Notes under the pieces: model-generated | The model's database searches: none | Told to the model about the DNA's origin: nothing | What the model saw: only the letters and a program-made list of their open reading frames with translations | Made by a program: the position numbers and the translations under genes | Assembly: GCA_963702425.1 (NCBI GenBank) | Contig: CAVPCQ010000020.1 | Coordinates: 82,264-146,263 of the forward strand | Origin: an uncultured Acidobacteriota bacterium | GTDB taxonomy: Bacteria; Acidobacteriota; Polarisedimenticolia; J045 | Length of the DNA: 64,000 nt | Direction: 5' to 3' | Part shown: piece by piece, positions 60,593 to 64,000 of the stretch | How the letters are laid out: every line of letters starts with the position of its first letter | Position numbering within the stretch: the stretch's first letter is position 1

Positions 60593-61374
60593 ACCAGGGC
60601 CGGCGAGTCGACGTTCCGCCCCAGTCGCTGCCCTCGCGGCGCGAGATCCTGACCCGCCCCCTTCCCGACCTCCCGTGGCGCGACCGCCCGCTGCAGCGCT
60701 TCGTCGTCTCGGTCCTGCGGGGTCTGTTCATCGAGGCCCACGGCGTCGAGCGCGTCGCGGTCGAGCACGACCCTTTCATCTTCGTGGTCAACCACAACCA
60801 GCGGCCGGAAGCCGTGGCCATCCCGACGATGCTCTACATGTTCCGGGGGGGGCGGATCATCCACTTCATCGCCGACTGGAACTCGATGCTGATCCCGTTC
60901 GTCGGTTACGTGATGCGCCGCGGCAAGGTCCTGACCCTGGTTCGGAAGGACGCGCGCCCGCGGATCCTCAACCTCCTGAAACCGCTCTACGACCATCCCG
61001 ATCCTGTGTTCGTTCGCGCCCGCAAGCTGCTCGACGCCGGCCGCTCGGTCGGGATCTTCCCGGAGGGGACGGTGAACCGCGATCCGCAGCACCTCCTTCC
61101 GGGCCACCCGGGGGCGGCCCGCCTGTCGCTCCAGAGCGGGCGCCCGCTGATTCCCGCCGGGTTGCGCTTCCCCGGTCACCCGCCGGATCGACCGATCCAC
61201 GACCTCTCGCGGTTCGTGCTCGAGATCGGCGAGCCGCTCGCGCCGCCCGCGACCGAACGACCGGGGCGCCCCTCGCCGCAGGAGGTTCGGGCGTGGCATG
61301 ATCGAATGATGAGGGAGTTGTCCCGCCTGTCCGGCAAGGCCTGGGAACCCCGCTCGGGCGGGAGCCGCGCATGA
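60589..61374 (+). CDS. Lysophospholipid acyltransferase family protein (PlsC-like)
   Basis: VNHNQRPE (HX4E variant), HFIAD, GIFPEGT. GTG overlaps the upstream stop. Confidence 0.85.
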   Translation: MNQGRRVDVPPQSLPSRREILTRPLPDLPWRDRPLQRFVVSVLRGLFIEAHGVERVAVEHDPFIFVVNHNQRPEAVAIPTMLYMFRGGRIIHFIADWNSMLIPFVGYVMRRGKVLTLVRKDARPRILNLLKPLYDHPDPVFVRARKLLDAGRSVGIFPEGTVNRDPQHLLPGHPGAARLSLQSGRPLIPAGLRFPGHPPDRPIHDLSRFVLEIGEPLAPPATERPGRPSPQEVRAWHDRMMRELSRLSGKAWEPRSGGSRA

Positions 61375-62030
61375 CGTCGTTGAAAGACCGCCTCTCCACG
61401 ATCCGGGTGGAGGACGACGAGGGGCGGCTGCAGGCGCTCGAGGTCCTGCGCGCCACCTACCGCGATGAGAAGGGATGGGTCAGCGACGAGGAGAAGCAGG
61501 TCCCCGAAAACGACCTGGCGCGCCCCGACGTGTCCTGGTTCGTGGTCCAGGAAAACGGCGTACCGGTGGGTGTGCTCAGGGTGCTGTACGACCCGCCGCT
61601 GCACCTGTACCGGGAGTACGGGCTGTCGCTGATCGACCTCGGGGCTGACATCGAGGCCTTCATCCGGGCGCACCGCATCGCGGAGATCGGGCGTTTCGCC
61701 GTTCTGCCCGCGAAGCGGCGGTACACGGTGATCGTGCTGGCCCTGATCCGGGCCGCGATCACTGAGACGGTCTCGCGGGGCTACACCCACTACATCACGG
61801 ACGTCTTCGAAGACGATCCCCACAGCCCCTACGAATTCCACACCCGCGTGCTGGGCTTCCAGCCGGTGGCAACGCACGACGTCGGAGAGCTCAACTGCGC
61901 CTCGCGCCGGATCACGCTCGTGCTCGACCTCCGGGCCTGCTACCACCGGATGCATGCGGCCAACGGGTTCTTCTTCCGCTACATCACCGAGAGCTGGAGC
62001 GAGGAGCTGCACCGGTCGCTGGCGCCCTGA
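61371..62030 (+). CDS. GNAT-fold N-acyltransferase (FeeM/OlsB/LuxI-like)
   Basis: LRATY..EKGW, PVGVLRV, IAEIGRFAVLP..R, LGF. ATGA overlap with the acyltransferase. Confidence 0.72.
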   Translation: MTSLKDRLSTIRVEDDEGRLQALEVLRATYRDEKGWVSDEEKQVPENDLARPDVSWFVVQENGVPVGVLRVLYDPPLHLYREYGLSLIDLGADIEAFIRAHRIAEIGRFAVLPAKRRYTVIVLALIRAAITETVSRGYTHYITDVFEDDPHSPYEFHTRVLGFQPVATHDVGELNCASRRITLVLDLRACYHRMHAANGFFFRYITESWSEELHRSLAP

Positions 62031-62808
62031 GCGCCGGAGGCGGGTTCGTCGCCAGCCACCCCCGCAGCGCGTAGTACCCCAGCCCGATCGCCTCGTGCAC
62101 GGCGCCCGTGGTGCGCGCCAGCGCGGAGGCGCTGGGCAGCAGGTCGGCCGCGTTCCAGCGTCCGGGGTCGCCCAGCGCCGCCGGCGCGGGGAGCGCCAGG
62201 AACCCCTCCCGCGCGAGACACGCGCGGGAACGCGCGAGGTGCACGGCCGAGGTGACGAGCGCTACGCGGGTCCATCCGCGGGCCCGGGCCTCGGCCGCAC
62301 AGAGCCGGGCGTTGTCGCGCGTCGTGCGGGCCTCCCGCTCGACCACGATCCGCCCGGGCGCCAGCCCGAGCGCCTCGGCCTCCTCCGCCATCCGCTGCCC
62401 GACGCCGGTCCGATCGGACCGACCCGCACCACCGCTGAAGACCAGCGGCGCCTCCGGCCACCGGCGTGCCGCCGCGAGGGCTGCAATCAGGCGCTCGCGG
62501 GACGAGTCCGAGAGCGGGGCCGAGGCACTGGTGCCGTCGAGTCCCCCGCCGAAAACCAGGATCCCGTCCGGCGCGGGCACGAGCGAAGGCGCCGGGGGCC
62601 AGCGCTCACCCAAGCCGGCCAGGGAGGACTCCGCGAGCCAGGCGACGGGTGGGGCGGCGGCAACGAGCAAGAAGGCCCAGGCGCCCAGCAGCAGGACGAA
62701 GGGGGCGCCCAGCTCCCGACCCTGCCGGCGCCGACGCCAGGCCAGGGCCGCGGCGAGGAGGCCGGCGAGGAGGGCGATGCCGAGCGGCGTCGTGAGGAGG
62801 TCCCGCAC
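61984..62808 (-). CDS. YdcF/ElyC (DUF218) family protein
   Basis: TMs, LVFGGG, FSGG, E..ARTT.DNA, LVTSAVHL.RS, HEAIG. Confidence 0.88.
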   Translation of the reverse strand: MRDLLTTPLGIALLAGLLAAALAWRRRRQGRELGAPFVLLLGAWAFLLVAAAPPVAWLAESSLAGLGERWPPAPSLVPAPDGILVFGGGLDGTSASAPLSDSSRERLIAALAAARRWPEAPLVFSGGAGRSDRTGVGQRMAEEAEALGLAPGRIVVEREARTTRDNARLCAAEARARGWTRVALVTSAVHLARSRACLAREGFLALPAPAALGDPGRWNAADLLPSASALARTTGAVHEAIGLGYYALRGWLATNPPPALRAPATGAAPRSSSR

Positions 62809-62920
62809 ACCCCTGATTATCGGGGATGGGGCGGGCGCTAGCCGAGGGCTGCGCCGGGCACTAGGTTGGCGGTGAAGGCGCCCGGCGAAGAGCCGCCCCG
62901 GGCGGCCGCGGAGGAGCGGA

Positions 62921-63238
62921 ATGGCCAGCGCGAAAGAGCTGCTCGCGGGCGTGGGCGAGAGCAGCGTCGACACGTCCTTCTGCGTCGGAGGCCGGCGCTA
63001 CCACGTCTTCGCCTTCCCCACCCCCGGACGGCGCCGGCCGAGCGTGCGCTGGAACCTCTACGAGGTGGTCCAGGGCCCGGACGAACGGCTGCGCGGTCTC
63101 ACGTTCGGGCTGGCCGCCAGTGTGGACGAGGCGCTCGACGCCGTCGTGAGGGTCGCGGAGCGGCACGAGCGGACCGGAGCTGTCGAACGCGCGGCCCAGC
63201 GCGGGCCGTTCACGTTCCGGCCGCTGCCGAGCGACTAG
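62921..63238 (+). CDS. Hypothetical protein (105 aa)
   Basis: RBS GAGGAG before ATG; globular-looking composition; ends at the terminator. Confidence 0.6.
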   Translation: MASAKELLAGVGESSVDTSFCVGGRRYHVFAFPTPGRRRPSVRWNLYEVVQGPDERLRGLTFGLAASVDEALDAVVRVAERHERTGAVERAAQRGPFTFRPLPSD

Positions 63239-63245
63239 TCCGGGC

Positions 63246-63274
63246 AAAAAGGGGGGCAGGCAGCGCCTGCCCCC
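63246..63274 (-). terminator. Rho-independent terminator of the small leader-peptide gene
   Basis: 10-bp stem GGGGGCAGGC/GCCTGCCCCC (63252-63274), 3-nt loop, followed by TTTTT on the minus strand. Confidence 0.8.
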
Positions 63275-63303
63275 GAAGCGGCACGTCGTGCCGCTGGATT
63301 GCT

Positions 63304-63591
63304 CTACTTCTTGGTGAAGAAGCTCAGGATCGCAGCCGCCGTCTTGTCCGAGACCACGGTGTTGTTGCTGACCGTGAAGTCCGGCTTGACCGGGTTGACC
63401 TGGCTGCCGCCCAGGCCGTTCCACGCACCGGTCGCGGCGCCGACGTTGACGCTGCCGTCGGGGTTCACGACCTGGTTGATCAGGTTGGCGGCATCGGTGC
63501 TGCTCGCCGAGATCTTCGCCAACAGGTCGGCCAGTCCGGTGCTCGGGGCAATGCGCGACTCCAGCTCTTCCACGTGAAGCTTCCGGCTCAT
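63304..63591 (-). CDS. 95-aa putative secreted protein/precursor with LE(S)RIAP leader
   Basis: RBS GAGGAG 7 nt before ATG 63591; MSRKLHVEELESRIAP followed by an N/S/G/V/T/A-rich mature part; GC3-biased codons. Confidence 0.8.
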   Translation of the reverse strand: MSRKLHVEELESRIAPSTGLADLLAKISASSTDAANLINQVVNPDGSVNVGAATGAWNGLGGSQVNPVKPDFTVSNNTVVSDKTAAAILSFFTKK

Positions 63592-63696
63592 CTCGTCTCT
63601 CCTCGGGCAGGAAACCCTGCCGCGCAGTTCGGGCGAACTCTCCGTCCAGCCCTCTCCTTGCGGCTCGCGGGCCGAGCCGCCTCCGCTGCGGTCCAC

Positions 63697-63713
63697 TGCA
63701 ATGACCCTGCCAG
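63697..63713 (-). promoter_or_regulatory. Sigma-54 (-24/-12) promoter
   Basis: Minus strand CTGGCAGGGTCATTGCA against consensus YTGGCACG-N4-TTGCW: exact spacing, one mismatch. Confidence 0.75.
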
Positions 63714-63779
63714 TCGCCCCGCGGGACCGCTCCGATCCGCGCCGGTCCAGCGCCGCCCGCGGCGCGCCGAGACGAATCG

Positions 63780-63810
63780 TCACCGGGCGCCGGGGCTCCC
63801 GTCCCGGTGA
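63780..63810. promoter_or_regulatory. Inverted repeat TCACCGGG-N15-CCCGGTGA, candidate enhancer (UAS)
   Basis: 8-bp arms, 67-97 bp upstream of the sigma-54 motif. Confidence 0.35.
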
Positions 63811-63872
63811 TGGGCAGAACGGTTTGGAGAGAAGGTGACCAGTTTCCGACAGCGAAGACGAGGAGCGGTCCG

Positions 63873-64000
63873 TCAGAGCAATGACGGGTCGATCAGGCGC
63901 AGCGCACGCCGCGCGATCAATCGTCCGAGCGGCAGCTTCCCGCCCGCGATCTTCGCCGCGCCGGTCATGCCGGGCTTCAGCAGGCCCGCGGGATCGGCGA
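63873..64000 (-). CDS. HlyD-like / RND periplasmic adaptor subunit, C-terminal end (truncated by window edge)
   Basis: Manual translation ...ADPAGLLKPGMTGAAKIAGGKLPLGRLIARRALRLIDPSLL*; L(K/R)PGM is the membrane-fusion-protein C-terminal motif. Confidence 0.72.
   Translation of the reverse strand, partial: ADPAGLLKPGMTGAAKIAGGKLPLGRLIARRALRLIDPSLL

Follow-up and report, generated by a model that had tools for sequence, protein, structure and literature searches.

At the end of the window, a 64-kb stretch that closes contig C20 in the 91%-complete genome (G000) of an uncultured Acidobacteriota bacterium, a small minus-strand gene encodes a protein of 95 amino acids (aa) which begins with a 16-residue leader, MSRKLHVEELESRIAP. 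Directly upstream lies the gene for a fusion protein of about 852 aa, composed of a PqqD-like RRE (the recognition element of RiPPs, peptides that are made on ribosomes and modified after translation), TPR-like helices, an M50/site-2 protease and an EmrA/MacA-like HlyD adaptor. On balance, we favor the reading that the 95-aa protein is a dedicated cargo of this inner-membrane protein, by which it would be read, cut and passed outward. This reading draws on the anatomy of the small gene, on the domain composition of the fusion with its intact catalytic motifs, on the conservation of the leader ahead of unrelated cores, and on gene linkage.

In the scheme that we infer for leader binding, the cleavage site, translocation and its energy source, and the function of the mature protein, sigma-54 would switch on the small gene from its own promoter, and the cytoplasmic PqqD-like RRE of the fusion would bind the leader (K-L-x-V-x-E-L-E-x-R-I-A-P). 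The intramembrane M50/site-2 domain would then cut after Pro16, as daptide leader peptidases do after ELExxxxx. The 79-aa core, Cys-free, globular and usually acidic, would be passed outward along the EmrA/MacA-like adaptor domain, which would presumably dock onto a TolC-like channel encoded elsewhere in the genome. A broader proposition, which we put forward only tentatively, is that the pair represents an undescribed leader-guided secretion route in its minimal form. The planctomycete signal LxLExLExRxxP would then be a leader read by the RRE and cleaved by the site-2 protease, and the RRE-M50-HlyD fusion would be its dedicated gate, through which cargo ranging from peptides of about 35 aa to proteins of > 1000 aa may reach the cell surface in several phyla with no recognizable pump.

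The conserved leader and the fusion protein

That the tag and the fusion work together is suggested most strongly by their linkage, which is kept despite a changed core and a changed gene order. Of 21 loci of the 95-aa type, 18 have the fusion gene as their direct upstream neighbor on the same strand; one locus (G006, 1.386 Mb) has a C-terminal HlyD fragment upstream and no more, and two (G005:C146 and G010:C12) have no fusion gene nearby. At three loci in the families f14 and f7, a leader gene with an unrelated core rich in G, N, Q and P lies directly upstream of the fusion gene. Co-occurrence of the leader with exporters of the proposed kind, which the initial annotation had asked for, is borne out for this fusion in three bacterial families with unrelated cores. 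A 67-aa type of leader gene occurs in five genomes (four of the same genus as the window, plus G015) with the fusion gene elsewhere. Because unlinked copies exist, pairing of tag gene and fusion is not obligatory in cis.

The tag follows the pattern L-x-V-E-x-L-E-x-R-x-x-P. Across 19 leader-bearing proteins, whose cores are of three types and otherwise cannot be aligned, residues M1, L5, E9, L10, E11, R13, A15 and P16 never vary. The same tag also heads further core types, in a metagenome protein of 70 aa (P0018), in N/G/P-rich peptides present in tandem in G028, in peptides with GYEGQPGNQ repeats in two f14 genomes and in a third copy of about 100 aa in G005. The tag precedes at least five unrelated cores in Acidobacteriota, where leader-bearing proteins are 53-104 aa long. 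A search for ELExR[IV]AP across 119 genomes of the class recovered it in 20 of 22 from the window's family; among 96 genomes of the other families it turned up in 12, which does not exceed the reversed-pattern control outside f14 (3 of 5) and G028.

Residues 9-16 of the window protein read ELESRIAP, which has the form of a daptide-type leader: E-L-E plus five residues, with A-P at positions -2 and -1. In an AlphaFold2 (AF2) model of the protein, the leader is a low-confidence helix. Passages of one report on daptides describe a precursor leader motif, ELExMEAP, that ends at P(-1) and is read by an RRE, where the RRE protein MpaB depends on L(-7) and M(-4) for processing, and an RRE fused N-terminally to an intramembrane site-2 protease (bioRxiv 10.1101/2023.03.08.531785). 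According to a later preprint, the cut in daptides follows the ELExxxxx motif even though P1 and P1' vary (bioRxiv 10.1101/2025.07.11.664356). Because ELESRIAP stands in the same register as the daptide ELExxxxx, the cut is predicted by analogy to fall after Pro16, between P16 and S17. The initial annotation had placed cleavage after ...IAP, which would agree with the published daptide register.

The fusion gene runs off the end of the window, and its continuity across contigs C20 and C34 is suggested by abutting reading frames and by orthologues. The two frames abut with no base missing and one codon across the ends. With orthologues from relatives as queries, tblastn places residues 15-830 within the first 2.4 kb of C34 and residues 833-872 on the last 120 bases of the window, and a complete 852-aa orthologue in a genome of the same genus (G004, L035:7031-9589) agrees with this reading. 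Contigs assembled from four DNA runs extended beyond the window end and were short; among 21 public runs, none of RNA was listed for this DNA. The C20 and C34 sequences were not joined, and analyses of the fusion used the 810-aa part (L017:2-2431) or orthologues. In the truncated protein, Pfam recognizes PqqD (25.5 bits, cut-off 23.4), HlyD_D23 (49.5 bits, cut-off 30) and HlyD_3 (49.9 bits, cut-off 22.2), together with weak matches to TPR and Peptidase_M50. Among NCBIfam families, the protease part scores best against that of the daptide intramembrane metalloprotease, NF041824 (with the G000 protein as query, 212.9 bits and E 7.6e-63; 195.4 bits in a search of the G000 genome; 190-216 bits for orthologues), followed more weakly by the YydH/LiaK family.

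In an alignment of 18 orthologues, two of them from Planctomycetota, H302, E303 and H306 of the HExxH motif and N396, N398, P399, D404 and G405 are invariant; because these catalytic motifs are invariant, the protease domain should be active. The AF2 model of the fusion has a predicted local distance difference test score (pLDDT) of 81.2 and places a beta3-alpha3 RRE fold at residues 36-106 and TPR-like helices at residues 122-210; beyond these it shows a membrane core of helices, in which the HExxH helix is succeeded by a re-entrant hairpin, and the periplasmic adaptor. With about seven membrane helices counted in the model, the RRE would be cytoplasmic and the adaptor periplasmic. The adaptor has the full lipoyl, alpha-hairpin and beta-barrel build of the HlyD family, and Foldseek against the PDB returned 71 matches for it at E ≤ 1e-3 (the best to EmrA, 4tko, E 1.5e-13; others to MacA, AcrA and MexA). 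The TPR-like insert (residues ~112-215) is present in all members of the window's family and absent from f7, f3 and Planctomycetota homologues. The fusion family comprises 443 clusters at E ≤ 1e-10 among 8000 candidates scored.

From the window alone, the initial annotation had described the upstream reading frame as ending in ...LLKPGMTGAAKIAGGKLPLGRLIARRALRLIDPSLL, as it does, and had proposed a leader-dependent exporter, with a PqqD/RRE and an M50 peptidase to be sought in the adjoining DNA. Both are found there, in one protein with HlyD. An RRE and an intact M50 domain fused to HlyD suggest that the upstream gene encodes a leader-handling machine and no ordinary drug-efflux adaptor.

The tag has a counterpart in a planctomycete cell-surface signal, for which Studholme in 2004 is said to be an earlier source. 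In the available passages of a proteomic study, this Planctomycetes-specific signal is given as RRLxxExLExRxLLA in R. baltica and as LxLExLExRxxP in Tuwongella immobilis; 52 T. immobilis proteins carry the signal, 20 of which were detected, 8 of these in the SDS-soluble fraction only, and it is present in 8 of the 10 longest proteins (PMC8567305). The same passages place LxLExLExRxxP proteins in the envelope fraction of a planctomycete by proteomics (PMC8567305). Our leader-pattern scan of species-representative genomes also matched metagenome-assembled genomes of Planctomycetota, in which proteins of 810 aa and > 1000 aa begin ...RRLRVEELEPRIAP. The suggested link to planctomycete ExLExR motifs is upheld by these tagged Planctomycetota proteins and by the fit to the published motif. 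Two Planctomycetota genomes with giant proteins that start with the tag, G041 being one of them, were searched, and each has an RRE-M50-HlyD homologue of 717-740 aa (NF041824, 208-216 bits). Across 101 Planctomycetota genomes, ELExR[IV]AP is frequent in G041 (14 hits, control 0) and G126 (4 hits) only. In a set of five genomes too small to weigh, the protease had one match in G126, two in G128 and none in G173, G201 and G122. The 14 tagged sites of G041 lie on many contigs and a single RRE-M50-HlyD gene was found there; one protease may serve many tagged proteins in this genome.

The small gene, its signals and its neighbors

The minus-strand 95-aa gene is real: of 22 other genomes in its family, 21 contain relatives, one of which (L058) has an in-frame stop immediately ahead of the ATG; relatives occur in 0 of 18 genomes from other families of the class. 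One genome, G034, enters tallies only, these and the motif count among them, and none of our claims depends on it. A caller based on GC content at third codon positions (GC3) instead chose an antisense open reading frame (ORF) of 92 aa (63299-63577, plus strand), which we rejected on the homology and the ribosome-binding site of the minus-strand gene. The antisense frame overlaps the small gene and has the same third-position GC bias, and composition-based calling picks the wrong strand here. Gene, promoter, ribosome-binding site, terminator and a Cys-free core with a QV(V)NP duplication are all located where the initial annotation had put them, on the minus strand (Table 1).

The core contains the duplicate QVVNP/QVNP and no Cys. 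A search of 1.84 billion proteins found just 13 representatives at E ≤ 1e-3, which makes for a small family, and no Pfam or NCBIfam family covers the 95-aa protein. Conservation extends along the whole length of the core. The AF2 model, built on 22 sequences (pLDDT 82.7, and 86-90 per 10-residue block over residues 21-90), is a compact, helix-rich alpha/beta fold of four helices and short strands. Foldseek against the PDB found nothing for the small protein at E ≤ 1e-3 (best E 0.9), VIA-align against 48,161 chains gave no convincing fold match (best Z 3.2), and a profile search of PDB sequences returned one chance-level row. Clusters of small planctomycete dockerin plus Planc_extracel proteins top a language-model look-up at 0.85, a level that the tool itself grades as a lead only; for dockerin, Pfam and PDB sequence searches gave 0 matches each, and VIA-align returned scattered EF-hand rows at Z 2-3. 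The core pI is 5.9 in the window protein and 4.1 in 13 of 15 genome-derived members.

The promoter is the sole match to TGGCA-N7-TGCW in the window (0.31 expected; at least one match in 28 of 100 shuffles) and is unconvincing by itself. However, of 23 regions upstream of leader genes, 18 have a GG-N10-GC site of the form TTGGCCCG-N4-CTTGCT at 106-137 nt ahead of the start codon, and matches of the GG-N10-GC type elsewhere in these 23 x 330 nt number 4 in all. The 23 regions come from related genomes and are not independent, and they include a different cargo type. The genome contains rpoN. No gene for a sigma-54 activator (enhancer-binding protein) is adjacent to the locus; the nearest was seen in a paralogous module (L018, contig C11:128000-146000), which holds a Crp-like regulator, a 290-aa HlyD protein and a response regulator with a sigma-54 activator domain. 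That module also contains an RRE-M50 gene with its HlyD part in another frame and a 792-aa GAF-HlyD gene, and the frame that lies open between them, with lysine/alanine repeats resembling AKMPAKAAAK, may encode the cargo of the module.

Nearly all relatives of the small gene have a Shine-Dalgarno sequence of the type GGAGGAGAG. A GC-rich hairpin of 5-8 bp stands 0-2 nt before it in about 19 of the 23 upstream regions by manual count, with stems of differing sequence; in single-sequence folds the z-scores against shuffles are modest (mostly -0.3 to -3.8), and RNAalifold on 18 upstream regions found no consensus structure in the 5' untranslated region (UTR). This hairpin may be a stabilizing or translation-gating element. 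The evidence for the terminator is its placement, the count by itself being weak (1 site in 62800-64000 against 0.8 expected).

Table 1. Features of the locus in the window and on contigs of the same or related genomes
Feature	Position	Strand	Basis or remark
Conserved 105-aa gene without assigned function or family	62921..63238	+	Points toward the small gene (convergent); found in 9 loci as cluster c1
Intrinsic terminator hairpin	63252..63274	-	10-bp stem with 9 GC pairs, then CTTTTTG; 30 nt past the stop codon
Small leader-bearing gene, 95 aa	63304..63591	-	ORF and homology; stop codon 63304-63306
Core, residues 17-95, predicted mature 79-aa Cys-free protein	63307..63543	-	Leader register
Leader, residues 1-16 (MSRKLHVEELESRIAP)	63544..63591	-	Predicted recognition and cleavage tag
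Shine-Dalgarno GAGGAGAGA	63596..63604	-	4 nt ahead of the ATG of the small gene
GC-rich 5' UTR hairpin GGCAGG/CCTGCC	63606..63621	-	Ends 1-2 nt before the Shine-Dalgarno; single-sequence fold
Sigma-54-type -24/-12 promoter TGGCAGGGTCATTGCA	63697..63712	-	Roughly 105-120 nt ahead of the start codon
3' end of the RRE-TPR-M50-HlyD fusion gene (final 41 codons plus stop)	63873..64000	-	Remainder on contig C34:2-2431 (-), locus L017
136-aa signal-peptide protein, cluster c8, no family	C34:2474-2884	-	42 nt upstream of the fusion gene, same strand
OmpA-like protein	C34:3027-3962	-	Precedes the gene of the 136-aa protein
67-aa leader genes	L014:14649-14852, L015:14943-15149, L028:6038-6241, L027, L029		Same leader and sigma-54 site

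The genes for the 136-aa protein and the OmpA-like protein may belong to the operon of the fusion and to an envelope-spanning assembly. Farther upstream on C34 are an amino-acid kinase fragment and genes for a NUDIX protein, Hsp33 and an HNH protein; the downstream neighbors are the 105-aa protein, a DUF218 protein and a GNAT/FeeM-like protein. The 105-aa protein has no Pfam or NCBIfam family, and its gene is a syntenic neighbor, a part in the system being a candidate role only. Together with the gene for the GNAT/FeeM-like N-acyl amino acid synthase homologue (61371-62030, plus strand), it adjoins the fusion gene in several genera, cargo present or not.

In four genomes of the same genus, a cargo gene is missing behind the syntenic fusion gene. 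In one of these (G004, L035:7005-7031), the fusion stop and the end of the convergent 105-aa gene are only 25 bp apart, at the site where G000 carries ~570 bp that hold the cargo gene, its promoter and its terminator. The four genomes and G015 lack the 95-aa gene and have 67-aa genes instead. At the three loci included in the clustering (G001, G003 and G004), the 67-aa gene stands just after the gene for an S8 subtilase of about 1020 aa and beside an OmpA-like gene; G000 has a subtilase homologue (C34:13440-16271) and no 67-aa gene. The OmpA-like neighbors of the two leader-gene types were compared as possible close relatives and are not close.

Weighing the readings

Several findings weigh against the favored reading, and the absence of any pump is its main weakness. 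No ABC, MFS or RND transporter, ATPase or TolC gene is found near the locus. For an adaptor that lacks a pump, no means is known of carrying a folded protein of 79 aa over the inner membrane. The fusion does not reach the curated cut-off of NF041824 (213 against 300 bits), and the core, conserved over its whole length and confidently modeled as globular, is unlike the short helical daptide cores on which the reference protease acts. PF07595 (Planc_extracel) has no match to the window protein and matches 3 of 22 members, the best at E 0.24. Leader genes occur unlinked to the fusion at G005:C146, G005:C189 and G010:C12 and, as the 67-aa type, in five genomes including some of the window's own genus. 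The case as a whole is built from sequence comparison, gene linkage and predicted structures.

Among eight ORFs on C34:1-11877 and four in the window, nothing next to the locus encodes a channel of the outer membrane, an ABC transporter, a C39 peptidase, a modifying enzyme or a sigma-54 activator, and the conserved neighbor clusters include no transporter or TolC-like channel of the kind that a tripartite or type I secretion system calls for. Elsewhere in G000, OEP (TolC-like) domains are found on other contigs only (17 domain hits), and SecA_DEAD has one match. The initial annotation had predicted an outer-membrane channel just beyond the window, and had looked to the neighboring DNA for a C39 peptidase, an enhancer-binding protein and modifying enzymes; none is adjacent. 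Its proposal is supported as to the leader-handling RRE-M50-HlyD protein, the linkage of the tag and the planctomycete connection, and finds no support as to an adjacent channel or modifying enzyme or a fiber.

The logic of an RRE with a conserved leader is that of RiPPs, and the 95-aa protein could be a true precursor that the RRE recruits to an unrecognized modifying enzyme before leader removal, giving a modified peptide product. Short, repetitive G/N/Q/P-rich cores in other families, the tandem precursor copies in G028 and the syntenic GNAT/FeeM-like gene (61371-62030) speak in favor of this. We nevertheless regard it as unlikely: no modifying enzyme is conserved with the pair across families, the GNAT gene is kept in G004 where the small gene is missing, and the 79-aa core is conserved end to end and modeled as a folded domain. 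Searches for daptide enzymes in G000 found no match to NF041823 (DapB), the control genomes also giving 0, and to NF041822 only a generic match on another contig (72.8 bits against a cut-off of 300).

Signaling is the classic role of site-2 proteases, and the fusion might instead perform regulated intramembrane proteolysis, cleaving a cytoplasmic regulator or decoy with no export, with HlyD as a periplasmic sensor or anchor. The lack of an adjacent pump or channel gene is consistent with this, and sigma-54 control suggests conditional expression. The small protein, however, has no transmembrane segment or DNA-binding motif, the adaptor has the full build of TolC-docking adaptors, and the same leader is found on giant repeat proteins; in the passages of the study cited above, proteins with the motif fractionate with the planctomycete envelope (PMC8567305). 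We consider this quite improbable. The initial annotation further proposed that the exported protein polymerizes as a fiber or amyloid in the manner of a major pilin subunit, on the strength of a gene with its own promoter, strong ribosome-binding site and terminator and of a Cys-free core rich in N, S, G, V and T. A fiber subunit or a hypervariable RiPP core sits poorly with conservation from end to end and with a compact, helix-rich alpha/beta monomer (pLDDT 82.7). The core shows neither a repeat nor a cross-beta signature, and nothing conserved nearby codes for an usher, a chaperone or a nucleator. With a core that is modeled as small and globular, the fiber reading is left without support, and we give it little credence.

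Public annotations call the fusion a "HlyD family efflux transporter periplasmic adaptor subunit", a "multidrug resistance efflux pump", a PqqD chaperone or a "putative peptide zinc metalloprotease". Taken at face value, the efflux labels would make the pairing a coincidence between an ordinary efflux-pump adaptor and an unrelated small ORF. This is very hard to credit and is already contradicted by domain content and linkage: the RRE and the intact M50 domain are present, the linkage recurs across three families whose cores differ, with the genes in either order, and the leader is one shared with substrates of the daptide RRE protease.

Comparison with known systems

The closest known counterpart of the proposed cargo-gate pair is found in the daptides. 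Like MpaP/DapP (NF041824), the fusion has an RRE N-terminal to a site-2 protease with HExxH and NxxPxxxxDG motifs, and the leaders share E-L-E plus five residues ending in A-P, right after which daptides are cleaved. It differs from MpaP/DapP in its TPR-like insert and C-terminal HlyD adaptor and in scoring under the family cut-off. The daptide enzymes DapB (DUF-RRE), DapC, DapD and DapM, which include a dehydrogenase, an aminotransferase and a methyltransferase, are missing among the neighbors of the window locus, and an ABC transporter is missing from the cluster. Daptide precursors end in an invariant C-terminal Thr, whereas the cores here end in K, G, R, F or H, and the core of the window protein is 79 aa long and modeled as folded. 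Daptides are known from Actinomycetota and Bacillota; the present system is from Gram-negative Acidobacteriota. If the favored reading is true, it would extend the logic of daptide-type leaders and RRE proteases from Gram-positive RiPPs to Gram-negative protein export. The YydH/LiaK epipeptide metalloprotease (NF058609), also a RiPP leader protease, gives a weak but consistent match to the HExxH region (E 2.9e-8 to 3e-10), at 34-41 bits against a cut-off of 225, and its radical-SAM partner is absent here.

Bacteriocin and microcin exporters join a C39-ABC transporter to an HlyD-type adaptor and TolC, and the leader is removed by a protease coupled to the periplasmic adaptor, so that processing and export form one step. 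The present fusion likewise couples a leader protease physically to a periplasmic adaptor. Here, however, the protease is an M50 metalloprotease instead of a C39 cysteine protease, it is fused to the adaptor and not to an ABC transporter, and neither an ATPase nor a double-glycine site is present. The adaptor domain shares with EmrA and MacA the lipoyl, alpha-hairpin and beta-barrel build (Foldseek E 1.5e-13 to 1e-11), and the N-terminal anchor of those adaptors is replaced in the fusion by an RRE-TPR-protease module of about 530 residues, with no cognate pump adjacent. Our search of the literature for PqqD/RRE, M50/site-2 protease and HlyD in combination found no description of such a fusion. 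Hundreds of database proteins that are now labeled efflux-pump adaptors belong to this fusion family.

The window protein also fits the planctomycete signal LxLExLExRxxP residue by residue (L5, V7 for L, E8, L10, E11, R13 and P16). The signal is known on large or giant surface proteins of Planctomycetota, whereas here it stands on Acidobacteriota proteins of 53-104 aa. NCBIfam, LEPR-XLL included, has no match at E ≤ 1 to the window protein, two other leader types or three planctomycete N-termini. In the literature searched, no processing or export machinery has been assigned to the signal since its description. The locus ties a tag of the planctomycete type to one protein whose domains would explain its recognition (RRE), its removal (M50) and an outward path (HlyD), and it does so in a two-gene form with a small cargo that is easy to express and assay.

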